Shown here piece by piece: positions 5,709-63,102 of a stretch of DNA of 64,000 nucleotides (its first letter is position 1; each line of letters opens with the position of its first letter). Under the pieces are notes generated by a model, which saw only the letters and a program-made list of their open reading frames with translations, had not been told where the DNA came from and made no database searches. Position numbers and translations under genes: made by a program. This DNA comes from a virus (lineage: Duplodnaviria; Caudoviricetes). The stretch lies in the IMG/VR virus record IMGVR_UViG_3300027759_000001. One strand, 5' to 3'.

Positions 5709-5710
5709 CC

Positions 5711-6481: not shown

Positions 6482-6513
6482 TTCTACGTAAACCTTTAAT
6501 AAATATATACAAA

Positions 6514-27568: not shown

Positions 27569-30500
27569 ATGGCGGTAAAAAAATATACTTGTCCACCACA
27601 GTCCCCAAGCGGTCAAGGGACATTTTCTGACAACTTAGTTGGTTTACAACTTGTTGATGGTGGTGGTTTTACGCAAGCGAATTTTGAATTTACCACATCA
27701 ATTACCGAAAAACAAAATAGAAACTTTTCAATAGGGGCATTTTCAGAACCTATATCTTTAGATACGTTAAATATTGAAAGTGTTACCGAATCAAGAGTAA
27801 TACAAGCGAATAACTTTAAAGTTTATCCTAATTTTGATTTATCTCAAGTTACTAACTTTACATTATATGGTTCTTTAGTTAAAAGAATATCTACTTCTAT
27901 TTTACATATTATTAATTTCTTTCCTGGAGCATTAGAAATTACATCAGTTTTACCAAATTATACTACAAGTGAAACTGCTACAAACATTCTATATGATGCG
28001 GTTGAGGATGAAACAACATTTGATGTCTATATAAGTTCTTTAAGAAACCCATTTGATATTGATTATAGTTCAAATGCCAATAGAAATTTTGAACTACTTG
28101 AAATTGAAGTTTCATCTTTAAGGAATTTTACGGTAAATTACCCAAAATATTCATTGTTTATAAATGGTAGTGAATATCCTTTTATATTCTTTAGTCCTTC
28201 TAATAATACATCCACTACATTAAGTTTTGTTGTTAAAGGTAACCCATTCTCAGGTAATTCCATATCTTATGATTCGTTAGTTATTAGACCTAATGATATA
28301 TACGTCAATAAAACATTCAATGAAGCGATGGATGAGGTTGAACAATTTTTGTTAAACAGGTCTATTACTCCGATATATACATCAACATTTACAGTTCCAA
28401 AAGAAAATGAAGATGGAACAATTTATTTAACAACCCAAGCAATCACATTTCCTAAAAATGGTCAATGGAATTTAGATATATCATCATTAGCGTTTGATAA
28501 CTATCTTACTACTTTAAATGAATTTGCCGCTAATTTAGATTTATATCGTACTAATTTAATATCCCGTTTTTTAACAACAGGTGCTATTAAAGAATTTGAT
28601 ACTCCTGATCAAAAAATAGAGAAGGTATTACAGATATATGGTAGAAGTTTTGATGAAACTAAAAAGTTCATTTCGGCATTATCAAACATGAATAATGTTA
28701 ATTACAATATTAAAAATGATATACCATCTCAGTTGTTAAAGAATTTAGCTATGACATTAGGTTGGGATCCAAATATATCACCAATTACAAATGATCAATT
28801 ATTGGATTCTGTATTTAGCCCTGGAAGTAATAATTTTAGTGGTTTGTCGGTTGGTATGACACCTGAGGAACTTAACTACCAATATTATAGAAACTTAATT
28901 TTAAATTCGGCATACCTTTTTAAATCTAAAGGTACAAGAAAATCTATTGAAATATTATTAAGATTAATTGGAGCTCCAGAAGCTTTAATTGAATTTAATG
29001 AATATATCTACATTGCGGATCAAAAAATAAATATTGAGGAGTTTAATGGTCAATACGCTCAATTATCAGGGGGAACATATACTCAACAATTACCTGTTTT
29101 AGATACAACGGATATATACTCAATCCATGGACAACAATTTACAGGATTTACAACAACAAGTATTATAAGTGATGTAAATGTTTACCCTGAAGATTATCCA
29201 ATAGATGATTTTGGTTACCCAATGATGCCAACAACAAGTGATTCTTACTACTTCCAAATTGGAGGTGGTTGGTTTGAATCCACACCACAACATAGGATGC
29301 CGGAACAAGTAGATACTACGAATAGTGTATTTACAGGTGCTAACCCTAATTACCAAACAACATTATTACCATTTAACTATGGTGAAGAATATCTACAAAG
29401 ATATAGAACTTTTCCTTATATGAATTTGGGTTATAAATTACGTAGAATAGTTGATAATAAGAAAAGTTGGACAGATACTCAAACTGGTTTAAGAACTAAT
29501 TTTGATGGTAACTTCAACGCATATTATCCTGTTAATAGTGATAAATTAGTTATAAATGTTAAGAATGTTGACATATTTATGAATCCGGCTCAAGGTTTGG
29601 TTTATGATGTGTGGACTATGTCAAGGCAATATAACTACCCAATACCTAATCAAGGGTTAAACTATGTTGAACCAACACGTTGTAATCCAACACCAAATAC
29701 TCCATACCCACAAAGGGGTGGAATTGATTGGACGGTAATCAACCCAAAACCAAAAGAAAAAACATTTTTTGAATTTGCACAAACTTTTTGGCATAATACA
29801 ATTAATGTTAGAAATAGACAATTTATTACCGATGGTAAGACAGGTGGGTACCCAACCCTTCAATCTATCTATTGGAAATACTTAGAATCAGGTCAGGCAA
29901 TTAATGTCCCTAACGATAATTTTACATATCAAACAATGATTGATTATGTTAATGGTTTGGGTACTTATTGGATAAAATTAATTGAACAAATGGTTCCCGC
30001 AACCACAATATGGAATACAGGTACCAAATTAGAAAACTCAATTTTCCATAGACAAAAGTTTGTGTGGAGAAGACAAATGGGTTGTCAACTTGTACCAGTA
30101 CCGTGTGATCCTTGTTATGCAATTGGTCAGTTATTACCTTATGATTGTCCAATACAATCTGTTGAGTGTCCTATTTATCCTTGGGGGTCTAATCCTAACG
30201 TTAATTCATTTGGGGTTGTTTTAGGTGATGTTTTGACTACATATTTAAATGATAATGGTTATGATTTAAATAATGATTGTTTGGTTAACACATTAACATC
30301 TGAATGGTATGTTGATGTTAGATTAAATGGAAATCAAATTATAGATTATAAATTCTTTGATGGGTATGGTTATTCTGTTAGTGGAACAAGTTTCCCAACC
30401 CAAGTGAATTGGTTAAACGCCCTTTATGACTCATTACCACAAATGATTAATGAAGGTTTAACATTTAGTATTAATGAAACGACAAATGTTGTGACAATTA

Positions 30501-30586
30501 TTAATAATAATTGTATTTCACTTAATAACCAAAATAATTTTGAATTAAATGTGGGAATAAATTTTGATATAATATGTAATCAATAA
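27569..30586 (+). CDS. Baseplate wedge protein with P2 gpI/T4 gp7-like segment
   Basis: LLKNLAMTLGW...YYRNLILNSAYLFKSKGTRKSIEILLRLIG. Confidence 0.6.
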   Translation: MAVKKYTCPPQSPSGQGTFSDNLVGLQLVDGGGFTQANFEFTTSITEKQNRNFSIGAFSEPISLDTLNIESVTESRVIQANNFKVYPNFDLSQVTNFTLYGSLVKRISTSILHIINFFPGALEITSVLPNYTTSETATNILYDAVEDETTFDVYISSLRNPFDIDYSSNANRNFELLEIEVSSLRNFTVNYPKYSLFINGSEYPFIFFSPSNNTSTTLSFVVKGNPFSGNSISYDSLVIRPNDIYVNKTFNEAMDEVEQFLLNRSITPIYTSTFTVPKENEDGTIYLTTQAITFPKNGQWNLDISSLAFDNYLTTLNEFAANLDLYRTNLISRFLTTGAIKEFDTPDQKIEKVLQIYGRSFDETKKFISALSNMNNVNYNIKNDIPSQLLKNLAMTLGWDPNISPITNDQLLDSVFSPGSNNFSGLSVGMTPEELNYQYYRNLILNSAYLFKSKGTRKSIEILLRLIGAPEALIEFNEYIYIADQKINIEEFNGQYAQLSGGTYTQQLPVLDTTDIYSIHGQQFTGFTTTSIISDVNVYPEDYPIDDFGYPMMPTTSDSYYFQIGGGWFESTPQHRMPEQVDTTNSVFTGANPNYQTTLLPFNYGEEYLQRYRTFPYMNLGYKLRRIVDNKKSWTDTQTGLRTNFDGNFNAYYPVNSDKLVINVKNVDIFMNPAQGLVYDVWTMSRQYNYPIPNQGLNYVEPTRCNPTPNTPYPQRGGIDWTVINPKPKEKTFFEFAQTFWHNTINVRNRQFITDGKTGGYPTLQSIYWKYLESGQAINVPNDNFTYQTMIDYVNGLGTYWIKLIEQMVPATTIWNTGTKLENSIFHRQKFVWRRQMGCQLVPVPCDPCYAIGQLLPYDCPIQSVECPIYPWGSNPNVNSFGVVLGDVLTTYLNDNGYDLNNDCLVNTLTSEWYVDVRLNGNQIIDYKFFDGYGYSVSGTSFPTQVNWLNALYDSLPQMINEGLTFSINETTNVVTIINNNCISLNNQNNFELNVGINFDIICNQ

Positions 30587-33500
30587 TGGGTGCTATACTT
30601 ATAAGTCAATTTAATTTAACGGGGGATTGTACAAATGAAGGGTTAGGTGTTGTAACTTTTACTGTGACTGGAGATAGTCCCAATTGGTTAGTGACTGAAA
30701 CTCCTACTCCCGATGTTAATTTACCAACATCGGCATTAACAATATCTAATAATGTTTATTATTATTCAGGTTTAAGTCCGGGTAGTTATTTTTTACAAGT
30801 ATACGACTCAACATATAGTAATTATGAGGTTGTAAATTTTTATATATCTTCAGGTACCTGTGTTTCAATTAATACGACAGATACTACTTGTGGTTTTGAT
30901 AACGGAGGTATAACCGCAACAACAGAATATTATTATGGTGGTGGAGCAGGGGCGACTTTTGCTTTATATGATATTGGTGATAATTTTATTTCAAGTGGAA
31001 CTTCAATAAGTAATGAATATGTTTTTCCTCCTGTTTCTGGTGGAACTTATTATGTTGTTGCTAATGATGGGGGTGGTTGTACAGGTATAAGTCAATCCTG
31101 TATAATTAATGAATCAATACCATTTGATTATGGTTATTATGTTGTAAATGATGGAAGTTGTATAAGTAGTGATGGCAGTGGTAAAATATTTTTAACAGGT
31201 TTATCTGATCCAAGTTTATATACGGTTAATTGGTTAACGAGTGTTAATGGGCAAACTGGAACAACGGTAACAGGTTTAACTGCAGGTTTATATAATGTAG
31301 AAGTTACAAATAATGATGGTTGTGTTGCAAGTAAAATAATCACAATTACTGGTGTGGAACCATTGGGTATTGGTGGTTTTATGACATATCCACCTGATTG
31401 TTTTGTAAATAATGGTGAAATAAATATAATTGTAACAGGTGGAACCGCACCATATTATATTGGATGTTCTAATGGTGATAGTGCGATAATATTTAATAAT
31501 GAATATACTTTTACAGGTTTATTTTCGGGAACATACAATTTTAACATAATAGATGCCGGAGTATGTAAAGTATCTGGAACAACGTCTATCAATACTTCTA
31601 ATAGTTTTCAAGTATCAAGTATTAATACCGTAAATTCAACTTGTAATGATAATACAGGATCGGTAAATATTACTTTAATTGGATCAGGATTTTATACATA
31701 TATTTTAACTAACTCATTAAATGAAGGAGATCAAGTTGGGCCTACTCAAGATATAGTACAAAATTTTGATACATTATCTTCAGGTGATTATAATTTGGTA
31801 ATAACTGATGGTGTATGTACATATGAAAATACAATTACAATTCGTAATACCGAAAAATTCACAATTTCCGCAATCACACAAAATACTACTTGTGGATTAA
31901 ATAATGGATCAATACAATTATTGGCAAGTACGGGTGGAACATTACCTTATAGTTATCAGATTACAGGATTTCCGCCTTCATTAACAACTACTTTTAATAA
32001 TTTAGCACCTGGTAATTATGTAGGTACAGTAACTGATAGTACGGGTTGTTCACAAACTTTAAATATTTATATTAATAATTCTAATGGGGTATTATTTGAT
32101 TTAATTGTAACTCAACCAACAAGTGGTAATAATGGTCAAATTGATACTATTATATATAACGGAACACCAACATTTACATATGATTGGAGTCCAAACGTTA
32201 ATGGTCAAACAGGATCAACCGTTACATCATTAAGTGGTGGTACATATAGTTTGGAGTTAACAGATTCAAGTGGATGTACATATGTAAAAACGGTTACTTT
32301 AACAGGAACTAATAAAAAATTAAGTTATCAAACATATAACATATGTAATGATAATTTCCAAAATACGGGAATACTTGGTAAACGAGGTATGCAACAAATG
32401 TTATCCGAAGGTTTTGCAGATTTAACATATGATGATACTGGATGTGTTATTATTAGTGCTGATTTTATCGCGGATATTACCGTTGATGGTGTAAATACTC
32501 AAGAGTCCTTTTATGTTTCATCAGGATTAACGGATTATCCATCTGATTATACTTGGGGTCAAACTCTTATTGGAATTTTAGAAAGTTATGATGGTATCAG
32601 TAAAGTTGAAATAGATTATGCGACTAATGAAATAAAAATTTATAATAAATGTGTTGAAATTGATGAATGTCAACCTCAAACTATTTATTATTTATCTGAT
32701 GCAAATATTGTGATCAATTTGAAATTGGAATATAACATTTCTTGTTATCAATGTATTGTAACACCAACACCAACACCAACACAAACTTTAACACAAACAG
32801 TAACGCCAACACAAACTTTAACACCTACGCAAACATTAACGCAAACTTTAACACAAACGGTAACTCCAACACAAACTTTAACATCAACACCAGGGTTATC
32901 ACCTACGTCTACACCTACGCAAACATTAACACAAACGGTAGTACCAACGACTACACCTACGTTAACGCAAACGGTAACTCAAACATTAGATCCAACTGCA
33001 ACTCCAACACCTACACCTACATTAACACAAACATTAGCACCAACTGCAACTCCAACACCTACATTAACACAAACGTTAACACAAACATTAGCACCAACTG
33101 CAACTCCAACACCTACATTAACACAAACGTTAACGCAAACATTAGCACCAACTGCAACTCCAACACCTACATTAACACAAACGTTAACACAAACATTAGC
33201 ACCAACTGAGACTCCTACACCTACATTAACACAAACATTAACGCAAACAGTTACAAGAACTTTAACTCCAACTCCAACTAATACTCAGACATTAACACAA
33301 ACATTAGCGCCAACTGAGACTCCTACACCTACATTAACACAAACGTTAACACAAACATTAGCGCCAACTGAGACTCCTACACCTACATTAACACAAACAG
33401 TTACGCAAACATTAGCACCAACTGAGACTCCTACACCTACATTAACACAAACACCTACGCCTACATTATCACCAACGTCTACACCTACGCCTACATTAAC

Positions 33501-33966
33501 ACAAACGGTAACACCAACTCCAACACCAGCAACATTTGCTGATTGTATTGAAGGGACTATACCAAAGTATACTAATTACGACTATTACCCATGTTGTTAT
33601 CCTTACTCAAAAATAATTGGAACAACTGGTGGTTCTCCGGAGACTGTATGTTATAATCCTTTTTCTGCTTCCACAAATGTTACTCCAGTTTCACCTCAAG
33701 TAATTTGTAATATACCCCTATTAACTAGTTGTTGTCAAATTCAATTGGGTTACGATTTATCTGACAGTGTTGTGGCTTGTGGGGCGGTACAATCAACATA
33801 CTATATAAGTACCCCTTGTAAGGCTACTAGTTGTGATTTGAATGGTGCGTTCGCAATCTATACAGATAACTCTTGTACTACATTAGCACCTGACGGATAT
33901 TATTCGGATGGTATTGACTATGGATCACAATCTGGTGGAGTTTTTGCTTTTGTTGGTCCATGTTAA
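30586..33966 (+). CDS. Tail fibre/adhesin-like protein: SprB-like repeats, mucin-like Thr/Pro stalk, Cys-rich tip
   Basis: Repeats such as TTCGLNNGSIQL...GGTLPYSY...NLAPGNYVGTVTDSTGC; about 255-aa T/P/Q/L tract; Cys-rich C-terminus. Confidence 0.7.
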   Translation: MGAILISQFNLTGDCTNEGLGVVTFTVTGDSPNWLVTETPTPDVNLPTSALTISNNVYYYSGLSPGSYFLQVYDSTYSNYEVVNFYISSGTCVSINTTDTTCGFDNGGITATTEYYYGGGAGATFALYDIGDNFISSGTSISNEYVFPPVSGGTYYVVANDGGGCTGISQSCIINESIPFDYGYYVVNDGSCISSDGSGKIFLTGLSDPSLYTVNWLTSVNGQTGTTVTGLTAGLYNVEVTNNDGCVASKIITITGVEPLGIGGFMTYPPDCFVNNGEINIIVTGGTAPYYIGCSNGDSAIIFNNEYTFTGLFSGTYNFNIIDAGVCKVSGTTSINTSNSFQVSSINTVNSTCNDNTGSVNITLIGSGFYTYILTNSLNEGDQVGPTQDIVQNFDTLSSGDYNLVITDGVCTYENTITIRNTEKFTISAITQNTTCGLNNGSIQLLASTGGTLPYSYQITGFPPSLTTTFNNLAPGNYVGTVTDSTGCSQTLNIYINNSNGVLFDLIVTQPTSGNNGQIDTIIYNGTPTFTYDWSPNVNGQTGSTVTSLSGGTYSLELTDSSGCTYVKTVTLTGTNKKLSYQTYNICNDNFQNTGILGKRGMQQMLSEGFADLTYDDTGCVIISADFIADITVDGVNTQESFYVSSGLTDYPSDYTWGQTLIGILESYDGISKVEIDYATNEIKIYNKCVEIDECQPQTIYYLSDANIVINLKLEYNISCYQCIVTPTPTPTQTLTQTVTPTQTLTPTQTLTQTLTQTVTPTQTLTSTPGLSPTSTPTQTLTQTVVPTTTPTLTQTVTQTLDPTATPTPTPTLTQTLAPTATPTPTLTQTLTQTLAPTATPTPTLTQTLTQTLAPTATPTPTLTQTLTQTLAPTETPTPTLTQTLTQTVTRTLTPTPTNTQTLTQTLAPTETPTPTLTQTLTQTLAPTETPTPTLTQTVTQTLAPTETPTPTLTQTPTPTLSPTSTPTPTLTQTVTPTPTPATFADCIEGTIPKYTNYDYYPCCYPYSKIIGTTGGSPETVCYNPFSASTNVTPVSPQVICNIPLLTSCCQIQLGYDLSDSVVACGAVQSTYYISTPCKATSCDLNGAFAIYTDNSCTTLAPDGYYSDGIDYGSQSGGVFAFVGPC
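32760..33530 (+). repeat. Coding tandem repeats (54-nt / 18-aa unit LAPT[AE]TPTPTLTQTLTQT and variants)
   Basis: acattaacacaaacgttaacacaaacattagcaccaactgcaactccaacacct recurs imperfectly. Confidence 0.9.
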
Positions 33967-34015
33967 AAATATAATTAAATATTTGTAATGTCGTAATTTC
34001 ATTATCAAAACCTTT

Positions 34016-34044
34016 TTGATATAAAATTCACTTTTATTTATTAT
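34016..34044 (+). promoter_or_regulatory. sigma70-type promoter TTGATA-17-TATTAT (overlaps TATTTAT at 34035)
   Basis: Exact 17-nt spacer; upstream of the glycosyltransferase. Confidence 0.5.
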
Positions 34045-34061
34045 ATAATATCTTTTAATAT

Positions 34062-35036
34062 ATGGAAAATATTCTTTTTGTAACCGCACAACCTGACGTA
34101 CCTTATTTTCATTGGCAAGTAAAATTATATACTCATAATTTTATTGATAAAGGAATTAAACCTTGTCAGATCCATGTAATTTTTGGATTACAAAAAAAAC
34201 AACAACCATCAAAAGGAGCATTAGAATTATGTGATTATGGTTACAATGTTCATTTCTACGATGACGACAGAGATAATAAATCTTATATACCAAGTATTAA
34301 ACCATATTTAATTTACCAATGGTTAAAGGAGTATCCTGAAAATAGTAAATTGTTTTTTCTTCATGATTCTGATATTATATTCAATAGATTACCTGATTTT
34401 GATAAATTATTAAATGATAATATTTCTTATTTATCTGACACCATAGGGTATATTGGTTACAACTACATTAAAGATTGTTGTGATAGATATGAGAAACAAC
34501 ACCCATCATCAAACAAAGAACAATTATTTCAAGAAATGGCTGACATAATTGGAATTGATGTTGATCTAATTAAACAAAATCAAGAAAATTCAGGTGGAGG
34601 TCAATACCTAATCAAAAATACGGATCCACTATTATGGGCTAAGATTTATGATGATTGTACACCATTATATAACCAAATGTTAGATTATCAAAAAAGATTT
34701 CCAATCAACCCTGGTCAAATACAATTTTGGACTGCAGAAATGTGGTCATTATTATGGAATATGTGGAATTCGGGATATAAGACAAAAATCACAAATGAAT
34801 TTGATTTTTCTTGGGCAACTGACGATATTAATATTTATAATGAAAAACCAATATTACATATGGCAGGTGTGACTGACCAATTAAAAACTACAAAATTTTA
34901 TAAGGGAGATTTCATAAACAGGAATCCAATTGAGGATTTAAGGAATGATAGTAGTTACTTCAATTATGTGGATAAAAATAGTTCCACAATTAAATATATT
35001 GAAGTAATGGAGTCATTTTTAGAAAAAAATAAATAA
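34062..35036 (+). CDS. GT-A fold glycosyltransferase resembling plant HPAT (GT95) / peptidyl-serine galactosyltransferase (GT96)
   Basis: PYFHWQ, YIPSIKP...QWL, DxD in HDSDIIF, WTAEMW, PILHMAG. Confidence 0.7.
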   Translation: MENILFVTAQPDVPYFHWQVKLYTHNFIDKGIKPCQIHVIFGLQKKQQPSKGALELCDYGYNVHFYDDDRDNKSYIPSIKPYLIYQWLKEYPENSKLFFLHDSDIIFNRLPDFDKLLNDNISYLSDTIGYIGYNYIKDCCDRYEKQHPSSNKEQLFQEMADIIGIDVDLIKQNQENSGGGQYLIKNTDPLLWAKIYDDCTPLYNQMLDYQKRFPINPGQIQFWTAEMWSLLWNMWNSGYKTKITNEFDFSWATDDINIYNEKPILHMAGVTDQLKTTKFYKGDFINRNPIEDLRNDSSYFNYVDKNSSTIKYIEVMESFLEKNK

Positions 35037-35041
35037 CTGAT

Positions 35042-35049
35042 TATTTATT
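35042..35049 (+). promoter_or_regulatory. Putative late promoter TATTTATT
   Basis: Motif just upstream of ATG 35054. Confidence 0.5.
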
Positions 35050-35053
35050 AGTA

Positions 35054-36379
35054 ATGGGAACTCAACCGATAATAGTAAAACCTGTAAATGAATGTGCAAT
35101 AATAACGTTATTTCCAATGACGGCTATATGTAATAGTATTAATCCAAGTACACCACAATCTTACGATGGATCAGTTAGTGTTTTGGTTAGTGGTGGTACT
35201 CCACCATATAATATTACTTGGGAAGAAGGTGGATCTGGACCAACAAAGTCTAATATTGGTGTTGGTAATTATCACGCAACCATAGTTGATTTTTATGGTG
35301 ATTTTACTGCAAATACAATATGTAGTTTAACTGCGGAAACAACCACAACCACAACTTCCACTTCAACAACTACTTTACCTGTTTATAGTGGTTTATGTAT
35401 GTATTTTACAAATACACATGGACCTAACTCGGAGACACATCAATTTTTATTTAATGGGTATTTAAATGGACAACCTACTTGGAAATCTGATGATAATTTA
35501 TATGATATATATTGGAGTACAGGAACAACAAATCAATGGTTAGTTGATGGATGGAGTAATGGTATTATTTATAATTCAAATACATCCACACCTCCATTAA
35601 CAGGATGGCAATTCTTAGGTGGAAGTTATTCTGCGTCATATGTAATTACTGTATTGGAAGGGGTTTGTGTGAGTAATCCTATGATTAATATGTCAATAAG
35701 TAAACAAGCACCAACTTGTGTTAATAATGGTAGTATTATTATAACTGCAAATGGTGGAACACCGGCATACCAATATTCAATTAATGGAGGAACTACGTAT
35801 CAATCAAGTCCGGTATTTAGTAATTTAGGTAGTGGTATTTATAGTGTTATGGCTAAAGATTCAAATAATATAACCACAACACAAAGTGTTACATTAACAT
35901 CAGCATCTGTTATTAACACTTATCAAATTCAATTACTTTTAACTGGTCCTAATTCTTTTAATATTCTAGTAACACCTACATTACCTAGTGGTACGTTTAT
36001 TACTTTTAATTTAACACATAATAGTACATTTAAATTAGCTCCTTCACCAACTGTGGCAACATATAATAATTTAGTTACGGTTATTGTTAATGGGACTCCA
36101 ATAACAACACCATCACCTATCTTAACTACAAGTACAACGTTTAATCCTTGTGATTCAGGATCAATTTACACAAAGATTAATGTAACTAATTGGAATACAA
36201 TAACATTTAATTCGTCAACTACAATAAGTGGTACTTTTACAAATACTATAAACCCAATAACACCTTTAGTTAATTGTTATAATGTTAGTGGTCAAAGTAA
36301 AATATTAATTAATAATGCTAAGTTGAATAAATGTGAATGTTGTAATCTTATAGTTAAAAATCCATCATATAATAAATAA
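35054..36379 (+). CDS. SprB-repeat protein with Thr-rich linker, putative virion fibre component
   Basis: YDGSVSVLVSGGTPPYNITW; PTCVNNGSIIITANGGTPAYQYSINGG; TTTTTSTSTTT. Confidence 0.65.
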   Translation: MGTQPIIVKPVNECAIITLFPMTAICNSINPSTPQSYDGSVSVLVSGGTPPYNITWEEGGSGPTKSNIGVGNYHATIVDFYGDFTANTICSLTAETTTTTTSTSTTTLPVYSGLCMYFTNTHGPNSETHQFLFNGYLNGQPTWKSDDNLYDIYWSTGTTNQWLVDGWSNGIIYNSNTSTPPLTGWQFLGGSYSASYVITVLEGVCVSNPMINMSISKQAPTCVNNGSIIITANGGTPAYQYSINGGTTYQSSPVFSNLGSGIYSVMAKDSNNITTTQSVTLTSASVINTYQIQLLLTGPNSFNILVTPTLPSGTFITFNLTHNSTFKLAPSPTVATYNNLVTVIVNGTPITTPSPILTTSTTFNPCDSGSIYTKINVTNWNTITFNSSTTISGTFTNTINPITPLVNCYNVSGQSKILINNAKLNKCECCNLIVKNPSYNK

Positions 36380-36395
36380 AAATTAACTAATAAAC

Positions 36396-36403
36396 TATTT
36401 ATT
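36396..36403 (+). promoter_or_regulatory. Putative late promoter TATTTATT
   Basis: Motif 6 nt upstream of ATG 36410. Confidence 0.5.
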
Positions 36404-36409
36404 GATTAA

Positions 36410-38923
36410 ATGAGTTATATATTAAAAAATACATCAGGGTTAGTTAACACTAGGATTACTGATACCGGAAGGTTAAAATTATCACAAGGTAATTTTAACA
36501 TATCTTATTTCCAAATTGGAGATAGTGAAGTGTCATATAATGAATTACCAAACACTTATAATCAATCAAATAGTGTTGTTTTAGAACCAAGTTTTAATAG
36601 TCAAAATAATGCTGGATCTCCTGAATCAAACAAACAAAATATTAAATACCCATATTATGTTGATGACAATAATAGTAATACTTATGGTATACCATTTATG
36701 GATTCTGTTATTGAACCTGTTTATAATAGAGCCCCACTAAGAGGATTTTTTACAGGTAATACAACTGCATCAACAATTAATTATAGTGCATTTACAGGAT
36801 CAAAATATGTTGTCACATCCAATTATATTGTTGATATGTCAACATTAGATGGTTCAAATCAAATAACAATTATTCAAGATATATGCGACCCAACAAATAC
36901 CAGTAAACCTGGTGTTGGAGATTTTATTACAATATATTATGATGGTTTAGCAAAATACGATTGTTCTTGTGTTAATTTACCGACACCGACACCAACGGCA
37001 ACAATAGGTACTACACCAACATTAACTAATACTCCCACTGCGTCAAATACTAATCTTGACCCGTGTGCGTCACCAACACCAACACCAACTCCATCGGCAA
37101 CACCTTGTTTGACACCATCAAATAAACCCGTTTGTCCTATACCACCTGACCCTTCATGTGTTAAACCTGTTCATTCATGTTTTCCAATATTAACATATCG
37201 GATTATTGATATATGTGAGAATAATGTGACTTTGGATAGACCAACACCTAATTATATTGGGTTAAGTACATATTGTTTTGGTAGAGTATTGGTATATCCA
37301 CCAAATATGACAACAATATACGATAGTATCACACCTCGTCCACATTGGTCAGATGATGTTATTAATTTTGAGTCAATTTGTGATATTGATCAGTTTGATG
37401 TGAAAGTATGGAATATGAATATTCCTTGGACGGAAAGTCCTGCGGGGTTAAGATCTACTGAATATGAAGATTATACTTATTTTGGTTCTATTGATTATAT
37501 TGGTAGTAAAGAATATTTTGGATACAATTCTACATCAGGACAAACTGATACAAGTTATGTGTATTATTATAACTCATTTGATGAAATTGTTCAGGTTAAA
37601 CCTGAGGAACAGAAGGCAATTGCAATTATACATTATACAAATCAAACTATAGATTTCTTCTATGGTGAGAAATTTGCGTTAGAACCTTATAATAACTCAA
37701 ACCCTGAAGATACAACAGGACAAGCAAGAAACTTTAAATTACATATGCCTACATTAATGTGGCATAAAAATCCTGAGTGTTGTTATGGTCAAACATTTTG
37801 GGTTGATCCTCCGGGATTTGAAGAAAAAGGTTTATTCCAAGTTCAATATATTAAGTCAACTAAGAATACTGATATGAATCAACCTGGTATTCGTTATTAT
37901 CACTTGTGGGACACTAATGCAAATGCGGATGGATTACCAAGTAGAGTTGGTAAAGTATTCCCTGATAGTAAATTAATTATTATTGATGATGAGGAAATTA
38001 TTGCGGCGTTATCATACAAGTCAAATAGAAACTGGACATTACCGGCACCACAGGTGTCTTTAATAACTCCTAATACTTGTGGTTTAACTACCTCAACAAC
38101 TGAAGGTATTTTAACAGGTAGTAGTGAAACTATGTTTGTTACTTATAGATTAAGTAATCCTTATAATTTTACTAATTCATTACATTCTAATTATTATTCT
38201 AAAATAATGGGTAATAATAATGATTGTAATCCTGACACATCTAAAAATGTAGCAGTTAGATTTGGTGCTGAGTTTAAATGTTTAACACAACCTGGATATA
38301 ATCCTGTTACAACTACAACAACTTATTCTCCATTAACAACTACTACAACTTATTTACCATTAACGACTACTACGACAACACATTGTCCAACTACTTGTGA
38401 TACACCTAATGGATTCTTTGCGACTAACTTCCAAGTAATTGCACAAAAAGTGGTAACAGGACAAAGACCTGATCCATCTAAATGGAAAGTTATTGACTAC
38501 ACTAGTTCGTTATCGGCAACAACAATAAATGGGTATATAACTGAAGATGGTTTAACTGGAACAACATTTGTTATTACACCTGATCTTTATAATAATTCAC
38601 CATATTATAATCTTAATAATTTTATTCCATTAACACCACTTGGTACTACCACACCTAATCTTAATTTTGGTGATGAGTACTATTTCTATGGGTCTTTTGA
38701 AAGTGATATACAGGCAACAATTTATGAGATGAGGTATAAAGTAAATTTAAGTTTCGCTGAATTCCAAACCACAACAAATCCTACATGGAAAAAAGGATCT
38801 AATTCTTATGTCACTGAGATTGCGTTACTTGATAGTAATAAAGATGTTATGGTTGTTTCTAAGATGCAATCACCGGTATTAAGACAAGGTATACAACAGT
38901 TTGTGGTTAAGTTAGATTTGTAA
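36410..38923 (+). CDS. Baseplate/tail-collar-like structural protein with Thr/Pro insertions
   Basis: N-terminal TRITDTGRLKLSQGNFNISYFQIGDSEVSY; C-terminal YVTEIALLDSNKDVMVVSKMQSPV (tail-collar-like). Confidence 0.55.
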   Translation: MSYILKNTSGLVNTRITDTGRLKLSQGNFNISYFQIGDSEVSYNELPNTYNQSNSVVLEPSFNSQNNAGSPESNKQNIKYPYYVDDNNSNTYGIPFMDSVIEPVYNRAPLRGFFTGNTTASTINYSAFTGSKYVVTSNYIVDMSTLDGSNQITIIQDICDPTNTSKPGVGDFITIYYDGLAKYDCSCVNLPTPTPTATIGTTPTLTNTPTASNTNLDPCASPTPTPTPSATPCLTPSNKPVCPIPPDPSCVKPVHSCFPILTYRIIDICENNVTLDRPTPNYIGLSTYCFGRVLVYPPNMTTIYDSITPRPHWSDDVINFESICDIDQFDVKVWNMNIPWTESPAGLRSTEYEDYTYFGSIDYIGSKEYFGYNSTSGQTDTSYVYYYNSFDEIVQVKPEEQKAIAIIHYTNQTIDFFYGEKFALEPYNNSNPEDTTGQARNFKLHMPTLMWHKNPECCYGQTFWVDPPGFEEKGLFQVQYIKSTKNTDMNQPGIRYYHLWDTNANADGLPSRVGKVFPDSKLIIIDDEEIIAALSYKSNRNWTLPAPQVSLITPNTCGLTTSTTEGILTGSSETMFVTYRLSNPYNFTNSLHSNYYSKIMGNNNDCNPDTSKNVAVRFGAEFKCLTQPGYNPVTTTTTYSPLTTTTTYLPLTTTTTTHCPTTCDTPNGFFATNFQVIAQKVVTGQRPDPSKWKVIDYTSSLSATTINGYITEDGLTGTTFVITPDLYNNSPYYNLNNFIPLTPLGTTTPNLNFGDEYYFYGSFESDIQATIYEMRYKVNLSFAEFQTTTNPTWKKGSNSYVTEIALLDSNKDVMVVSKMQSPVLRQGIQQFVVKLDL

Positions 38924-38974
38924 AAAACTTTAGTTTTAACATCTTACTATTATATTATAATAAAACAATCTTTT

Positions 38975-39583
38975 ATGAGGACACCAATGAAAAATTCACC
39001 TAAAGTATTGGGATTAGACATCTCAACTAAAACAATAGGGTGGGCACTCTTTGATATTAAAACACAAGATTTATTAGAATTAACTCACGTATCTCCAAGA
39101 CCTAAAAATAAAGATACTGAGGAAAATAAGATGTTAGAATTAATATTAAAATCTGAAGTATTCAAAACTAAATTAGAGGATTATAAAAAATTAGGGATTG
39201 TAAGTGTTATTATTGAAGAACCATTATTAAACTCTAATAATGTTTATACAATCCAAACTTTATTAAGATTTAATACGTTAATATGTAAAACAATTTATGA
39301 TGTGTTAGGTATTGTTCCTGAATTTATATCAACTTATAACTCAAGAAAATTTGCATTCCCCGAATTAGTTCAAGAAAATGATAAAAAGAAACACGTTTTA
39401 TTTGGAGGACTTCCTAAGGACATTGATAAGAAAATGATCATATGGGAGTTGGTTGCAAAAAAAGAACCTCAGATCCAATGGCAATATACAAGAAACAATA
39501 CTTTGAAGAAAGAAAACTTTGACCAAACAGATGCTTATGCTTGTGTGTTAGGTTATATGAGAAGTAAAGAAATTTGGAATTAA
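38975..39583 (+). CDS. RuvC-like Holliday junction resolvase
   Basis: VLGLDISTKTIGWA, VIIEEP, DQTDAYAC. Confidence 0.8.
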   Translation: MRTPMKNSPKVLGLDISTKTIGWALFDIKTQDLLELTHVSPRPKNKDTEENKMLELILKSEVFKTKLEDYKKLGIVSVIIEEPLLNSNNVYTIQTLLRFNTLICKTIYDVLGIVPEFISTYNSRKFAFPELVQENDKKKHVLFGGLPKDIDKKMIIWELVAKKEPQIQWQYTRNNTLKKENFDQTDAYACVLGYMRSKEIWN

Positions 39584-39609
39584 TATCGTTTAATTTACCG
39601 ATAATTTAG

Positions 39610-39640
39610 AATATCGTCTTTTCGGACGATATTTTTTTTT
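39610..39640 (+). terminator. Terminator between convergent genes
   Basis: AATATCGTC...GACGATATT stem followed by a long T run. Confidence 0.85.
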
Positions 39641-39651
39641 ATTTATAAATT

Positions 39652-41934
39652 TTAATTAGTTGCACAATACCCACCAACTACTACAGTGATTATAACAAAA
39701 CTTGATGTTGATGTTGGTACGGAACTTGAACACGTTTTATTATACTTTTGAGAATTAATAGTTTGTATTATTGGTAAACCTGTGCCACAGTCGGTATATG
39801 TATATGTTAAAGGTTGAATAAAAGTGTTATTTATTAAGTATTGTATACAAGCAGGACGTGTTAATGTAGGTGTTGGTGTTGGCGTACCTGTTGGTGTTGG
39901 TGTTGGTGTTTGAGTGTTTACAATTAAACATTGTGAACAATACCCTTCAGATTCAGGACCTAAAATATTTGTTAAAACTATAGTACTAACACCACCAATA
40001 TCACTTACAAATCCATCATACACAACACAAGTAGATATACCATTAATAAATGATTCATATACATATCCTTTATCTGGTGTATTACCTAAAGGATCTAAAA
40101 CAACATCTGTTGTGTAATATAAGAACCCTGTATTACATTCTTTAAAACGTTTACTACCATTACATATAATATAATCGTCAAACGTGTTAAACACGACTGA
40201 CCCATCAAAATTACAATTATATTGTGGTGATGGGGTTGGAGTTGCAATCATTTTACCACTTGTTGCGGTAGGTGTCGGTGTTAATACATTTGCAGTTACC
40301 GATATTCCTTTACCACCACAAATTTCAGTTGCGGTAGGTGTTTGGGTTGGTGTAGGTGTTGGAGTTCCAGTTACGGTTGCCGTCGGGGTTAAAGGTAACT
40401 CACAATCAAACGCAGCTTCAAAAGATATTGGTTGACAATATTGTGTTGGTGTTGGAGTTGGAGTAGGACAAGATCCATTAGTGAAAAAATCATCACATAA
40501 ATCAGGACAATCAGTATTACAAGGTGATGGACCAAATAAATAACAATCACCATCTAATGAGTCTGACAAACACCAACGATTGCTATCTGATGAAAAATAA
40601 ATAACTAAACCATTTGTTTGACCAAGCCAAAAAAGTTGTTCATTCCATGTACCACCACTAATATATGTATCATCATAAGCAATGTCACCTGTTGAAATAC
40701 AATAAGATTCATAAGGACATATAATTGGTGGTTCGGGGCAAATATCGCAAAAATTATATTTAACACAGGTATTATCACAAGAATTATAAATATAACCTGA
40801 TGAGCAAGTGTAACCTGAAGTTGAATATACACCAGCATTAGATTGTACTAAAGTTGCTTGGGTTTTACCCGACGATGTAAATAAAATATTAAGATCCGAA
40901 TATAATGTTGCGGAATTTAATTCGGGTAATGTGTTATCATAAATTTCACAACCAAAACCACCATATGAATCATCATTTCGGCCATATAATTCAATAATGT
41001 GGTTACCTGAATTCAAAGTTAACGGGTAAATATTCCATCTTTTATATGTCTTACCCGCGGAGTCCCAATATGTTGATAAACTAGAGTCAACAATTGTGGT
41101 ACCATCAATTTTTAATTTAAAATCATTATCACCACCAATACCTATATAATATGTTTTTGTTTCTTCTATATCAATACATTGACTGAAACCAAGCCATACA
41201 TCATATGGAGGTGCGACAGTTGGATAACTAACAGTCCATACACCACATCTATTTAATGGGCCACCAGTGGTATTAAATAAGGGATTATCCCATAAAGTAT
41301 TTGAAGGTAATAGTACATAATCACCACCACCTGGGTTCGTAAAACCTAAAATACTATAACCTGGATTATAAACAAATGACCCATATACACTATATTGTGA
41401 ATACCCTATATCAACAAAAGATATTGGTGTTAAAGGAGCGGTTGCGGAAACAACCTCCAATGAATAACACTGAGTTTCACTATAAGCCGAATAACTTGGG
41501 CCGCATTCTATACAACTACCTGTACAAATTGTTGTTGGGGTAGGTGTTGGAGTAGGTGTTGATGTTAATACAGGTGTTGATATTGTTGCCGTTGGTGTTA
41601 GTGTTGGTGTTAGTGTTGGTGTCGGTGTTGGAGTACTTGTTTCTCTTGATGATGATGTTGTTGGTGTTGGTGTTGTTGTTAGTGTTGGGGTTGGGGTATT
41701 AGTTAAACAAGGATCAATATCGTCTATTCCTCCTTTAATATGATCAAGGTGGTAAAGATTAGTGCCGTTAGAATACCATGATAAATCAGTTGCCTGAGTT
41801 GAACAACCAGGGTTTGTATATAACATTTGTCCAATACTTAAACTATTACCATAAAGGGTAAGAGTAAATGGTCCTGAACACAACCCTGTTGGAGATGCGT
41901 TTCCAACTGTAAACGTTCCTAAATTAACACACAT
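39652..41934 (-). CDS. Cys-rich, Thr/Pro-repeat protein with PA14-like carbohydrate-binding domain
   Basis: YYIGIGGDNDFKLKIDG...LTLNSGNHIIELY; four TPTPTP tracts; many Cys. Confidence 0.6.
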   Translation of the reverse strand: MCVNLGTFTVGNASPTGLCSGPFTLTLYGNSLSIGQMLYTNPGCSTQATDLSWYSNGTNLYHLDHIKGGIDDIDPCLTNTPTPTLTTTPTPTTSSSRETSTPTPTPTLTPTLTPTATISTPVLTSTPTPTPTPTTICTGSCIECGPSYSAYSETQCYSLEVVSATAPLTPISFVDIGYSQYSVYGSFVYNPGYSILGFTNPGGGDYVLLPSNTLWDNPLFNTTGGPLNRCGVWTVSYPTVAPPYDVWLGFSQCIDIEETKTYYIGIGGDNDFKLKIDGTTIVDSSLSTYWDSAGKTYKRWNIYPLTLNSGNHIIELYGRNDDSYGGFGCEIYDNTLPELNSATLYSDLNILFTSSGKTQATLVQSNAGVYSTSGYTCSSGYIYNSCDNTCVKYNFCDICPEPPIICPYESYCISTGDIAYDDTYISGGTWNEQLFWLGQTNGLVIYFSSDSNRWCLSDSLDGDCYLFGPSPCNTDCPDLCDDFFTNGSCPTPTPTPTQYCQPISFEAAFDCELPLTPTATVTGTPTPTPTQTPTATEICGGKGISVTANVLTPTPTATSGKMIATPTPSPQYNCNFDGSVVFNTFDDYIICNGSKRFKECNTGFLYYTTDVVLDPLGNTPDKGYVYESFINGISTCVVYDGFVSDIGGVSTIVLTNILGPESEGYCSQCLIVNTQTPTPTPTGTPTPTPTLTRPACIQYLINNTFIQPLTYTYTDCGTGLPIIQTINSQKYNKTCSSSVPTSTSSFVIITVVVGGYCATN

Positions 41935-42155
41935 TATAAATTAATATTTTCTATTATCACACAATCATTATCATCAATCACTTTAACCACAAAACTTGTA
42001 AATGAGGAAAAAATTGATGGAATCATAAAAGAATACGGTAAATTACCACTATTGATAGTTGATACATAAATACAAGTTGTGTATCCTGTATCACATACGT
42101 AAACATCATAAGGTGATATTCCGGTAATAGAAGTGATTGTAATGTTTGTATCCAT
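41934..42155 (-). CDS. Small beta-rich hypothetical protein (73 aa)
   Basis: TAATG coupling to the 760-aa gene; preceded by TATTTATA on the minus strand. Confidence 0.75.
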   Translation of the reverse strand: MDTNITITSITGISPYDVYVCDTGYTTCIYVSTINSGNLPYSFMIPSIFSSFTSFVVKVIDDNDCVIIENINL

Positions 42156-51150: not shown

Positions 51151-51951
51151 ATGAAAGACAAAAATTTAGGGATTCCGATTAACCAAGAAGAGATTCAACA
51201 TTATCTAAAAGATATTCGTAGAATTAAAGTAATGACACCTGACAGAGAAAAAGAACTGGCGGTTAAGATGAAGGCTGATGATACTCCTAAACGTGAAAGG
51301 GAAAAAATTGAATCCGAGTTATTAGTTGGTAATTTACGTTTTGTAATTACGGTGGCCAAACAATATCAGAATCAAGGTTTGGATTTATCTGATCTAATTG
51401 CTGAAGGTAATTTGGGTTTGATGAAAGCGATTAAAAACTTTGATTGGCATAAAGATCTACGTTTTATATCATACGCAGTTTGGTGGGTTAAACAATCTAT
51501 CATCCAGTCGTTGAATGATAACGCAAGAACGATCAGACTTCCAGTTAATGTTGTTCAGGACCTACATAAGGCTAAGAAAGAAATTGCGATTACAGGTAAA
51601 GAATTAGAATTAAAGTTTTCATCATTACCGTCTATGATTGATTTGGATATGACAATCAATGATGAAGGTGACACATTGGTTGATATGATTGCTAATCCTA
51701 ACGCACTTGCTCCTGATGCGGGATTCAACACTAAAGATATGTTAAAGAACAAATTAATATCTTTATTAAATGTGTTAGATGAAAGAGAAAAAGTGATAAT
51801 TGAGGATTATTTTGGATTAAGTGGAACACCAAGAACACTTGAAGACATTGGTGGAGATTTTGGTTTAACTAAAGAACGAGTTAGACAGATTAAGGAAAGA
51901 GCCCTTAGAAGATTGAGAAATGAAAGTTCAGAACTATTTGATTACTTATAA
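51151..51951 (+). CDS. RNA polymerase sigma70 factor, Bacteroidota primary-sigma-like
   Basis: NLRFVITVAKQYQNQG, DLIAEGNLGL, FISYAVWW, TLEDIG..FGLTKERVRQI. Confidence 0.95.
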   Translation: MKDKNLGIPINQEEIQHYLKDIRRIKVMTPDREKELAVKMKADDTPKREREKIESELLVGNLRFVITVAKQYQNQGLDLSDLIAEGNLGLMKAIKNFDWHKDLRFISYAVWWVKQSIIQSLNDNARTIRLPVNVVQDLHKAKKEIAITGKELELKFSSLPSMIDLDMTINDEGDTLVDMIANPNALAPDAGFNTKDMLKNKLISLLNVLDEREKVIIEDYFGLSGTPRTLEDIGGDFGLTKERVRQIKERALRRLRNESSELFDYL

Positions 51952-61076: not shown

Positions 61077-61985
61077 ATGAATAATGAAAACTATTACGGG
61101 GTTTTAGGTGTTGATGAAAAGGCAACACAAGAAGACATCAAGAAGGCATATAGAAACCTAGCAAAAGAAAATCATCCTGACAAAGGTGGGGATGAAGAAA
61201 AGTTTAAGAAGATCACTGAGGCGTATGATACGATTGGAGACGCAAATAAACGAAGTCAATACGATAATCAACGGAGTAACCCATTTGGTGGTAATTTTGC
61301 TGATATGTTTCATTCATTCAATCAACAACGACAAAGACAAGATACTCACACTAGTGTGATTACGGTGAACATAGGGGTGTTGGATTCATATTTAGGTAGG
61401 AATAAACAAATTACATATAAGAGAAAGACTAGTTGTAATGTTTGTAGTGGATCAGGAGGGGAGAAGAAGGTATGTACTACCTGTAATGGTATTGGTAGTG
61501 TTATGAAACAAATGGGTACGGGTATGTTCGTACAAGTTGTTAATATGATGTGTGATACTTGTTCAGGTACTGGTAAAATTACTATAAATGCTTGTTATTC
61601 GTGTAATGGATCGGAGACTAAAGATGAAATGAAAACATTGGATGTTAAAATACCTCATGGGTTAGAGGATGGTCAGTTCATAAGAATGTCAAATGTTGGT
61701 GATTTTAGAAATGGTAGATTTGGGGATTTGGTTATAAGGGTTAATTTAATGGAAGAAAATGGTTTCTTTAAGAACGGACCACATTTAATATATAACTCTT
61801 ATTTAAACTATGAAGATCTTATAAAGGAGGATATAAACATACCTCATCCTGATGGTGAGTTAAATATTAAATTACCTAAGTTATTTGATTCCTCAAAACC
61901 TTTGAGAGTTAAAGGTAAAGGATTTAAGGTAGATCAAATTGGGGATCTATTAATTAATCGGATTGTTAGGTTTGAAAGACCTTAA
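61077..61985 (+). CDS. dnaJ: DnaJ chaperone (J-domain, four CxxCxGxG-type repeats, C-terminal domain)
   Basis: YYGVLGV...HPDK; [32 protein letters not shown]. Confidence 0.93.
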
Positions 61986-62262: not shown

Positions 62263-63102
62263 ATGTTATCATATATTGGAGGAAAAAGTAAGATAGGAAA
62301 GTGGATAGTCCCTTTCTATGATAAAGATATGGAAACATATGTTGAAACATTCGGTGGGATGTTTTGGTGTTTCTTTAATATGGATCTAAGTCAGTTCCCT
62401 AATCTTAAGAAAGTTATATATAATGACTTCAACCCACTTAACCATAATCTATTTGAATGTATTAAGAATCCTGAAAGATTATTGGAATCAATCAACGCAA
62501 TCCCATGTCAACAATTTGGTGTGGAAATTACACCATCAATATATAAAGAACAATTTATCAGCTTTCAGGCTGAAATATTTGATGAAAATTTCAGGGTAGA
62601 ACCTGGTAATTATGATGTTGCAGCTAAATATGCGTATGTTTTAACACAAGTGTTCTCAGGATCTAAACCTGAAAAAAGTTCTTTCATTGACTTAAAAGGT
62701 AAGTACAAATCTAAATACTTAACATTCCGAGATAAATTAATAAAACCTGATTGGGTTGAACATTTCTTAAGAATAAGTGATGTGGAGAATATGGATTTTG
62801 CTGAGGTGATTGAAAAGTATGATTCACCAACAACTTACTTCTATGTTGATCCACCTTATTGGAAGACTGAAAACTATTATTCTAATCACGATTTTGATAG
62901 GGAAGACCACGAGAGACTTTCAAAGTCATTAATAAATATGGAAGGTAAATTCAGTTTATCGTACTATGATTTTGAATTATTACACGAATGGTTTCCTGAA
63001 GATCAGTACAAATGGGAGAAAAAAGAGTTTGCTAAAGCGGCAGCGGCAAAAAAGGGAACAAAACAAAATATGGGTGAGGAATTATTAATAATGAATTACT
63101 AA
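62263..63102 (+). CDS. dam: DNA adenine methyltransferase (Dam/D12 class)
   Basis: SYIGGKS, YNDFN, FYVDPPY, ELLIMNY; target sequence not determinable from the sequence alone. Confidence 0.9.
   Translation: MLSYIGGKSKIGKWIVPFYDKDMETYVETFGGMFWCFFNMDLSQFPNLKKVIYNDFNPLNHNLFECIKNPERLLESINAIPCQQFGVEITPSIYKEQFISFQAEIFDENFRVEPGNYDVAAKYAYVLTQVFSGSKPEKSSFIDLKGKYKSKYLTFRDKLIKPDWVEHFLRISDVENMDFAEVIEKYDSPTTYFYVDPPYWKTENYYSNHDFDREDHERLSKSLINMEGKFSLSYYDFELLHEWFPEDQYKWEKKEFAKAAAAKKGTKQNMGEELLIMNY

Follow-up and report, generated by a model that had tools for sequence, protein, structure and literature searches.

A 64,000-nucleotide stretch of a tailed-phage genome (Caudoviricetes; IMG/VR record IMGVR_UViG_3300027759_000001), hereafter referred to as the window, contains a gene for a predicted GT-A glycosyltransferase of 324 amino acids (aa) among tail-module genes whose products are rich in threonine (Thr) and proline (Pro). 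The enzyme, its neighbours and its relatives in other viruses were examined by sequence comparison and structure prediction, and it is proposed here that the phage uses the enzyme for O-glycosylation of Thr-rich tracts in its virion proteins. The five open reading frames (ORFs) that a preliminary description of this DNA had singled out are all present (Table 1). All substrate candidates had been placed on the strand of the enzyme gene, which holds for the first three of them; the last, encoding a Cys-rich 760-aa protein, lies on the minus strand. The Thr/Pro tracts were likewise found where they had been located, the longest of them measuring about 263 aa instead of about 255.

Table 1. Positions of the enzyme gene, its predicted active-site motifs and the neighbouring Thr-rich genes in the window
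Feature	Position	Strand	Basis
GT-A glycosyltransferase, predicted soluble, 324 aa, phrog_4417	34062-35036	+	PHROG profile, AlphaFold2 model, Foldseek
HDSD, predicted DxD metal/nucleotide-sugar motif (D102, D104; residues 101-104)	34362-34373	+	directly after strand 97-100; invariant
Codon of His266 (ILHMAG), C-terminal His typical of metal-dependent GT-A enzymes	34857-34859	+	end of strand 264-266; invariant
Tail-module protein, 1126 aa, SprB-type repeats and Cys-rich C-terminal domain, candidate acceptor	30586-33966	+	Pfam
Thr-Pro / TQTLTQT repeats of the 1126-aa protein, about 263 aa (aa 723-985)	32752-33540	+	tract scan
All-beta tail protein of several domains, 441 aa, encoded directly 3' of the enzyme, candidate acceptor	35054-36379	+	Pfam SprB, AlphaFold2
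Thr run ETTTTTTSTSTTTL / ETTTTTTSTSTTT of the 441-aa protein (aa 95-107), predicted to be a disordered linker that joins beta domains 1 and 2	35336-35374	+	AlphaFold2
Tail-fibre-like protein, 837 aa, candidate acceptor	36410-38923	+	clade-conserved, tracts at the same places
PTPTPT-type tracts of the 837-aa protein (aa 190-236)	36977-37117	+	tract scan
Three TTTTT(Y) units plus TTTTTT of the 837-aa protein (aa 630-666), 27-nt repeat	38297-38407	+	tract scan, repeat finder
Cys-rich protein, 760 aa, weak PA14-like stretch (E 0.04), candidate acceptor	39652-41934	-	Pfam, tract scan
Four Thr-Pro tracts of the 760-aa protein (aa 75-141, 484-502, 514-538, 671-696)	41512-41712, 40429-40485, 40321-40395, 39847-39924	-

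A conserved putative GT-A enzyme of the family phrog_4417

The 324-aa ORF matches the profile phrog_4417, annotated as of unknown function, from end to end (E 2.2e-70; residues 6-317 on profile positions 3-289 of 293). Pfam holds no family for it or for 51 of its relatives, and PDB sequences gave no match either by phmmer or by profile search. Homologues are numerous: a word-indexed search returned 1366 matches, and an exhaustive search of 1.84 billion representative proteins returned 837 at E <= 0.001, 309 of them below 1e-30. phrog_4417 is an uncharacterised family that occurs mostly in phages.

Fourteen positions are invariant in an alignment of 51 diverse members (30-73% identity), including D102, D104 and H266, which are also invariant in 43 distant and 80 multidomain homologues. 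G269, F279 and K281, which follow H266, are invariant in alignments A1 and A2. The AlphaFold2 model, built with the alignment of 51, reached a predicted local distance difference test (pLDDT) value of 97.6 and a predicted template-modelling (pTM) score of 0.94, and displays a single-domain alpha/beta fold of GT-A type in which strands and helices alternate. D102, D104 and H266 correspond to the motif of a metal/nucleotide-sugar site, where binding is predicted, and by analogy with GT-A enzymes in general H266 would have a catalytic role. The N-terminus, MENILFVTAQP, leads directly into strand 1 (residues 5-11), and since it contains no hydrophobic segment the protein is predicted to be soluble and cytoplasmic. 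The ORF almost certainly encodes an active GT-A glycosyltransferase.

Thr-rich proteins beside the enzyme gene

With an alignment of 25 clade homologues, AlphaFold2 modelled the 441-aa protein as a series of beta domains (mean pLDDT 80.5). The Thr run, residues 96-107, is exactly where pLDDT drops below 50, and because model confidence collapses there the run is predicted to be an exposed linker after the first SprB-type domain. Its position is retained in relatives down to 35% identity (consensus of alignment A5), and it is encoded by mixed ACA, ACC and ACT codons. In the 837-aa protein, both Thr-Pro and poly-Thr tracts recur at equivalent positions in the clade relative L008; the protein gave no tblastn match in cultured phages. 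Both genes immediately 3' of the enzyme gene, those of the 441-aa and 837-aa proteins, thus encode Thr runs of the kind that marks the family.

The 1126-aa protein is 20% Thr overall. Within its repeats, a tandem-repeat finder delimited an array with a 54-nt unit at 32953-33518 (10.6 copies, 83% matches), which looks like a recent expansion at the DNA level and is probably length-variable between strains; tracts of differing lengths are found at the same place in clade relatives. The 760-aa protein (4.9% Cys) is the product of the region's only minus-strand gene, and a homologous minus-strand gene with Thr-Pro tracts at the same place is found in clade relatives. Its homologues range from 350 to 1164 aa, which marks it as a fast-evolving, modular protein, possibly a receptor-binding or carbohydrate-binding fibre.

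Four neighbouring ORFs of the window carry such tracts. Thr/Pro/Ser-rich tracts were found in 23% of the ORFs near the enzyme in the window's clade, compared with a baseline of 1.3% of ORFs in 80 random viral loci. Beside the enzyme, Thr/Pro tracts are kept in 79 of 80 clade relatives, and in those with enzymes 60-72% identical the Thr-Pro tracts stand at equivalent positions with differing sequence and length.

Association of the family with poly-Thr proteins

Three sets of IMG/VR loci were compared, namely 80 loci of the window's own clade (enzyme 58-98% identical), 80 distant loci (42-75% identical to one distant member and about 35% to the window enzyme) and 120 viral loci drawn at random by means of an arbitrary 14-mer, 80 of which were used for the counts of Thr runs. 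A run of at least five Thr in an ORF other than the enzyme was present in 73/80 clade loci (143 of 1155 ORFs) and in 60/80 distant loci (82 of 1237 ORFs), and the random set had none (0/80 loci; 0 of 836 ORFs). After the enzymes were clustered, the association was seen in 14 of 15 clusters at 55% identity and in 43-44 of 48 at 70%. Of the roughly 350 homopolymer runs of at least five residues in the distant loci, Thr accounts for 326; Gly comes next with 9.

The runs are also concentrated at the enzyme gene. Among ORFs of the distant loci, 36% of those adjacent to it (<=100 bp) have a Thr run, and the share is 4% within 3 kb, 2.4% at 3-6 kb and 1.7% beyond 6 kb. The protein with the run is the product of the ORF immediately upstream on the same strand in 51 of the 80. 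Ten poly-Thr proteins encoded upstream of distant homologues had no Pfam domains; by PHROGs, four of the ten are major tail proteins with C-terminal extensions or 'virion structural proteins'. In the upstream proteins the Thr runs are spaced 75-100 residues apart, as linkers between small domains would be. Co-occurrence with Thr-rich proteins, on which the preliminary description had made its proposal depend, was thereby borne out: homologues are not independent of such proteins, and poly-Thr virion proteins adjoin the gene in distant lineages.

The association could be approached from the opposite side as well. When viral loci were picked for an in-frame run of at least seven Thr, the enzyme was found in 7 of 81 as opposed to 0 of 120 random loci (p = 0.0015), the stretch available per locus being short. 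The other 74 loci (within L290-L407), several of which are giant-virus contigs (GVMAG), had no family member in the short stretch examined; in these, poly-Thr may be the target of different glycosyltransferase families, or the enzyme gene may be located beyond the stretch.

Poly-Thr tails in cultured phages and their loss without the enzyme

By tblastn, homologues were detected in 77 phage records, all below 40% identity, from phages of Lactobacillus, Enterococcus, Staphylococcus, Lactococcus and Clostridium and from one Chryseobacterium phage. In siphophages the enzyme gene lies inside the structural module. For instance, it is directly 3' of the capsid region in Lactobacillus phage iLp84 and Enterococcus phage VPE25, and directly 3' of the major tail protein gene in Clostridium phage phiCTP1 and Staphylococcus phage PMBT8. 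In Lactobacillus phage Semele it is found near recA and a sigma factor and not in an annotated structural module.

In all six loci examined, poly-Thr (runs of 5-16 Thr) occurs in neighbouring virion proteins or small ORFs. The capsid protein of iLp84 has the C-terminus PTTTTTTTSK and its tail protein ETTTTTTTSK; the tail protein of VPE25 terminates in TTTDTTTTTTTTTTAGK, that of PMBT8 has 16 Thr at its end, and gp11 and gp18 of phiCTP1 carry terminal Thr runs. In Semele and Chryseobacterium phage MA9V-3, Thr/Ser runs are present in two ORFs upstream of the enzyme gene. Small ORFs lie just upstream of the gene in iLp84 (gp8, 6504-6881 of locus L003, 125 aa) and Semele (5637-5990 of locus L005, 117 aa). 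The former consists mostly of runs of 7-12 Thr. Both products are composed largely of Thr runs spaced by VKP or AP, and they could be dedicated glycan-carrier or decoration proteins.

The capsid protein of iLp84 provides a natural experiment. It ends with ...QAKVLVPTTTTTTTSK, and homologues exist in four phages without the enzyme, namely Brevibacillus phage Abouo (55% identity), Oenococcus phage phiS11 (54%), Clostridium phage LPCPA58 (41%) and S. thermophilus phage 93 (32%). The C-terminal motif ...ATALPSFP...EV.QAQ of the iLp84 protein is also found in Abouo and phiS11, and the proteins of LPCPA58 and phage 93 end at the corresponding position. All four enzyme-less homologues stop there, and the iLp84 protein continues with VLVPTTTTTTTSK. 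The 13-15 kb structural modules of the four phages contain neither a run of at least four Thr nor a homologue of the enzyme. In this comparison, the Thr tail and the enzyme therefore come and go together.

Fold relatives of the enzyme

The motifs YFHWQ, YIPSIKP..QWL, DSDII, WTAEMW and PILH, from which kinship with the plant families GT95 and GT96 had been proposed, are all found in the ORF in that order, with HDSD at residues 101-104. The proposed kinship stood at the level of fold; at the level of sequence it failed for GT95. In a Foldseek search of the Swiss-Prot AlphaFold models, the best match was the Arabidopsis peptidyl-serine alpha-galactosyltransferase SGT1 (GT96, Q8VYF9; E 1.9e-10, template-modelling (TM) score 0.62, plant residues 394-699), and eight of the nine following ranks were hydroxyproline O-arabinosyltransferases (HPATs; GT95) with TM 0.59-0.64 and E 1.5e-9 to 2e-7. 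These matches cover about residues 4-320 of the phage enzyme. Chlamydomonas SGT1 had a TM of 0.56; GT8 galactinol synthases, yeast Gnt1, UGGT and others ranked lower (TM 0.39-0.48).

Consistent rankings came from other collections. Among 2.3 million clusters of the AlphaFold database, three unnamed clusters of the enzyme's own family came first (TM 0.81-0.95), followed by one nucleotide-sugar transferase and a long series of 'hydroxyproline O-arabinosyltransferase-like domain' proteins (TM 0.52-0.65), above GT8. A protein-language-model search of the ESM atlas yielded a neighbouring viral cluster in which 10% of members have the Pfam HPAT domain (PF23452), and a haptophyte HPAT cluster with a score of 0.87. 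In the PDB, which contains no GT95 or GT96 structure, all 337 inspected matches at E <= 0.001 were GT-A enzymes, the best being WbbM, the UGGT catalytic domain, LARGE1, XXYLT1, GT6 and GT8 with TM 0.35-0.46. GT8, GT24, GT6 and lipopolysaccharide enzymes thus reach only TM 0.35-0.48. Glyco_transf_8 (PF01501) matched neither the ORF nor the 51 relatives, and the fold similarity to GT8 is TM 0.38-0.48.

HPATs transfer L-arabinofuranose onto hydroxyproline (Hyp), and we know of no peptidyl-Hyp tracts of this kind in bacteria. GT95 has been predicted to be GT-A-like (PMC8476585), and it is described as a relative of GT96 (PMC8012813). A GT-A-type core is common to the phage enzyme and to GT95 (HPAT1-3, RDN1, PLENTY, NOD3) and GT96 (SGT1/SERGT1). 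In plants and algae, these two families initiate O-glycosylation at hydroxy-amino acids (Hyp or Ser) within extended, repetitive, Pro-rich peptides of wall proteins (PMC8012813). Identity in the Foldseek alignments is only 13-16%. The plant enzymes are Golgi or endoplasmic-reticulum membrane proteins, with a type II anchor in GT95 (PMC8012813), whereas the phage enzyme is predicted to be soluble without a membrane anchor and would work in the bacterial cytoplasm during phage assembly. Its likely acceptor is Thr in poly-Thr or Thr-Pro tracts, in contrast to Hyp or Ser in GT95 and GT96. We regard the phage enzyme as a family of its own, resembling GT95 and GT96 in fold and probably a member of neither.

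Glycogenin and UGGT likewise act on protein-linked acceptors. With GT8 and GT24 (glycogenin, LgtC, galactinol synthase, UGGT) the phage enzyme has in common the GT-A fold, the DxD motif and a C-terminal His-x-x-Gly...Lys segment. These families are among the best matches in solved structures, but only with TM 0.40-0.48, and the insertions and helical lid regions differ in the phage enzyme.

Many members of the family are longer (450-1400 aa). In 80 of these, the partner domains were Glyco_transf_7C (8), GT60 'GlcNAc' (3), GT6 (2), GT2 (2), GT25 (1) and protein O-fucosyltransferase (1). Every partner that recurs in more than one of the 80 is a glycosyltransferase except an F5/8 type C carbohydrate-binding domain (2), and radical-SAM or methyltransferase partners are single cases. 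GT60 comprises the cytoplasmic GlcNAc transferases of Skp1-Hyp and of trypanosome mucin Thr. Such partners fit a role in initiation, after which a second transferase would extend the product in some lineages. Among these longer proteins, P0177 (1369 aa) unites a protein O-fucosyltransferase, a GT60 GlcNAc-transferase, an F5/8 type C lectin domain and the family domain in one chain, and in P0221 (658 aa) the family domain is fused to a radical-SAM/SPASM domain.

Proposed function and alternative explanations

The best-supported reading, to which we assign a probability of about 0.72 on the strength of gene association and structural models, is that the enzyme attaches O-glycans to Thr-rich tracts in virion proteins of the phage itself. 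Late in infection, it would take a host nucleotide sugar and transfer the sugar onto Thr hydroxyl groups in exposed, disordered Thr-rich linkers of the tail and fibre proteins, and mucin-like, glycan-coated linkers on the virion would be the outcome. The firmest acceptor candidates would be the Thr runs of the 441-aa and 837-aa proteins; the Thr-Pro arrays of the 1126-aa and 760-aa proteins are probable but less certain ones. We infer protein Thr as the acceptor, as well as the donor sugar, the linkage or anomeric outcome, the timing and a benefit to the phage, which might consist in shielding, protease resistance, stiffening or adhesion. The glycosylated, mucin-like virion of the preliminary description is in this respect supported, with the correction that the conserved signature is poly-Thr and not Thr-Pro.

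Several points weigh against this proposal. The entire evidence is comparative or predicted. Pfam HPAT (PF23452, cut-off 23.9 bits) did not match the ORF at E <= 1 and matched only one of the 51 relatives, at E 0.38; it did not match the near-relative virus record G001 either, a weak negative as the controls were silent too. Kinship among the loci implies that the Fisher value for distant against random loci (1e-26) overstates significance, and the counts of enzyme clusters are safer. In 20 of the 80 distant loci, there was no Thr run in the DNA examined, some stretches of which were short. No further glycosyltransferase or sugar-nucleotide gene was found among the 38 other window ORFs of at least 100 aa. 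Finally, most tract residues in the window are Thr-Pro or TQTL, the family-wide partner being poly-Thr, and 11 of 80 random viral loci (14%) have Thr/Pro/Ser-rich tracts but no enzyme, so that such tracts may be plain linkers. For these last two reasons, the Thr-Pro/TQTL arrays are less certain substrates, and the odds that the long Thr-Pro arrays in the window are glycosylated as well are about even.

It could accordingly be asked whether only the pure Thr runs of the 441-aa and 837-aa proteins are glycosylated, the Thr-Pro/TQTL arrays being ordinary flexible linkers, so that a 'bottle-brush stalk' would be the wrong picture for most of the tract length. The conserved partner across distant lineages is indeed a run of at least five Thr, tracts of the other kind are found in the enzyme-less loci just mentioned, and the 263-aa array, a young 54-nt expansion, has a pattern typical of linkers that vary in length. 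Against this, hydroxy-amino acids in Pro-rich peptides are the targets of the nearest characterised relatives, the enrichment of Thr/Pro/Ser-rich tracts near the enzyme is far above that of random loci, and Thr-Pro tracts keep their positions in relatives with 60-72% identical enzymes. This restricted version is considered unlikely. That the enzyme acts on something other than protein is much less likely still. Its target would be host lipopolysaccharide, capsule or teichoic acid (serving exclusion or the masking of receptors) or the bases of phage DNA, and the Thr tracts would be unrelated linkers. DNA and host surface polymers are the substrates of most phage glycosyltransferases that have been characterised (PMC12619734), and the PDB fold matches include the polysaccharide enzymes WbbM, LgtC and hyaluronan synthases. 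Such a target, however, leaves unexplained both the Thr runs in 36% of adjacent ORFs against 0% in random loci and the loss of the Thr tail in capsid homologues of enzyme-less phages. The PDB matches are also poorer than those to peptide O-glycosyltransferases (TM 0.35-0.46 against 0.59-0.64), and Pfam revealed no hydroxymethyl-pyrimidine pathway gene among the window ORFs. The gene resides in virion modules of both lytic and temperate phages; the position in Semele near recA and a sigma factor would suit a non-protein target, yet Semele, too, has Thr runs in two ORFs just upstream.

Even less credit can be given to the idea that the protein is no longer an enzyme and, having kept the glycosyltransferase fold, serves as a chaperone or virion component to which Thr-rich tails bind while the particle is assembled. 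It would agree with the constant location of the gene in assembly modules and with the label 'major tail protein' that the homologue phiFL2B gp49 bears in one database record. Against it, the DxD motif, the C-terminal His and about 12 more residues are invariant from 30% identity up in hundreds of lineages, the pattern of a conserved active site, and the fusions are to other catalytic glycosyltransferase domains. A DNA glycosyltransferase, a host-surface seroconversion enzyme and an inactive structural protein were therefore rejected as main readings.

With O-glycosylation of virion proteins as the preferred function, a more general proposal can be made, towards which we lean only slightly. 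phrog_4417 would write a portable 'poly-threonine glyco-tag'. In phages of at least two bacterial phyla, capsid, tail-tube, decoration and fibre proteins would be extended by Thr runs, on which a cytoplasmic enzyme remotely related to the extensin-glycosylating plant families GT95 and GT96 would make mucin-like glycan brushes. In the present phage, the tag would have been expanded into Thr-Pro stalks hundreds of residues long on its tail fibres.

Genome setting and host

The window is part of a large phage genome of low GC content (~30%). It encodes a T4-type baseplate wedge protein (15550-17388), a ribonucleotide reductase, a DnaB-like helicase and a gp32-like protein, together with a full three-domain DnaJ co-chaperone (61077-61985), a sigma-70 family factor with regions 1.2, 2 and 4 (51151-51951) and a Dam-type N6-adenine methyltransferase (62263-63102). 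A RuvC-like Holliday-junction resolvase (phrog_159/827; 38975-39583) separates the tail-fibre genes from the minus-strand gene of the Thr-Pro protein, and the arrangement of this 199-aa ORF is preserved in the clade relatives L007 and L008. One of the 38 other window ORFs has a weak Pfam match to the CAP12/Pycsar-effector TIR domain (E 7e-4), and others match the Lcl C-terminal domain (E 7e-10) and DUF6576 (E 7e-13).

Megablast of positions 30000-42000 gave zero matches in cultured phages. The baseplate wedge protein is at best 25% identical to a cultured-phage protein, from Flavobacterium myophages, and no cultured phage is close. SprB repeats are known from a gliding adhesin of Flavobacterium; SprB-type repeats (PF13573) occur in the 1126-aa (E 3e-8) and 441-aa (E 3.5e-10) tail-module proteins. 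These repeats and the baseplate protein are the only hints, and on their account a Bacteroidota host is weakly supported. The idea that the enzyme gene is under a different promoter class than its neighbours was dropped. TTATTTATT precedes the enzyme gene and the next gene downstream alike, at a distance of about 20 nt, and the window shows no enrichment of WTATTTATT (18 matches against 16.3 expected).

Relation to known systems and implications

Dense O-glycosylation of the mucin or serine-rich repeat (SRR) type gives extended, protease-resistant stalks on surface structures. Mucin-type GT27 enzymes and the streptococcal GtfA/B SRR systems resemble the proposed one in that all would densely O-glycosylate low-complexity Ser/Thr(/Pro) tracts. 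Nevertheless, GT27 (with its lectin domain) and the GT-B enzymes GtfA/B are unrelated families and are absent from the top fold matches.

To our knowledge, mycobacteriophages are the only phages for which experiments have demonstrated glycosylation of the particles by phage-encoded enzymes; there, the modification shields virions from antibodies. In Che8 and its relatives, glycosyltransferases of the phage are reported to modify its own virion proteins, and the glycans are placed at the C-termini of capsid and tail-tube subunits, the same positions that carry poly-Thr in Bacillota phages with the enzyme (PMC12619734, PMC11256854). Maravista, which is closely related to Che8, has its putative glycosyltransferase genes towards the right end of the genome and not in the structural module (PMC11256854). 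No mycobacteriophage is among the 77 phage records with a homologue, and hence the enzyme family of mycobacteriophages is probably a different one. For phrog_4417, adjacency and co-variation join a phage glycosyltransferase to virion proteins with dedicated acceptor tails. In the searchable literature, no paper was found that ties a phrog_4417-type enzyme, GT95/GT96 or poly-Thr tails to phage virions, and a search for 'prophage pi2 protein 34', a label borne by a homologue, gave nothing relevant.

The data suggest a second virion-glycosylation system with a different enzyme, which is apparently much more widespread (837 representative matches; 77 cultured-phage records). Its signature is simple and can be read directly from genomes, and cultured phages of Enterococcus, Lactobacillus, Lactococcus, Staphylococcus, Clostridium and Chryseobacterium are at hand as test subjects. 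If the proposed function is true, it would bear on phage host range, stability, mucus adherence and immune recognition, including those of therapeutic Enterococcus and Staphylococcus phages. It would also offer a compact enzyme-plus-tag pair for bacterial glyco-engineering, and the first soluble microbial relatives of the plant-restricted GT95 and GT96 for structural work. Should the proposal of a poly-threonine glyco-tag hold, virion O-glycosylation would be common and not a peculiarity of mycobacteriophages, and the plant enzymes would have a deep viral or bacterial sister group.

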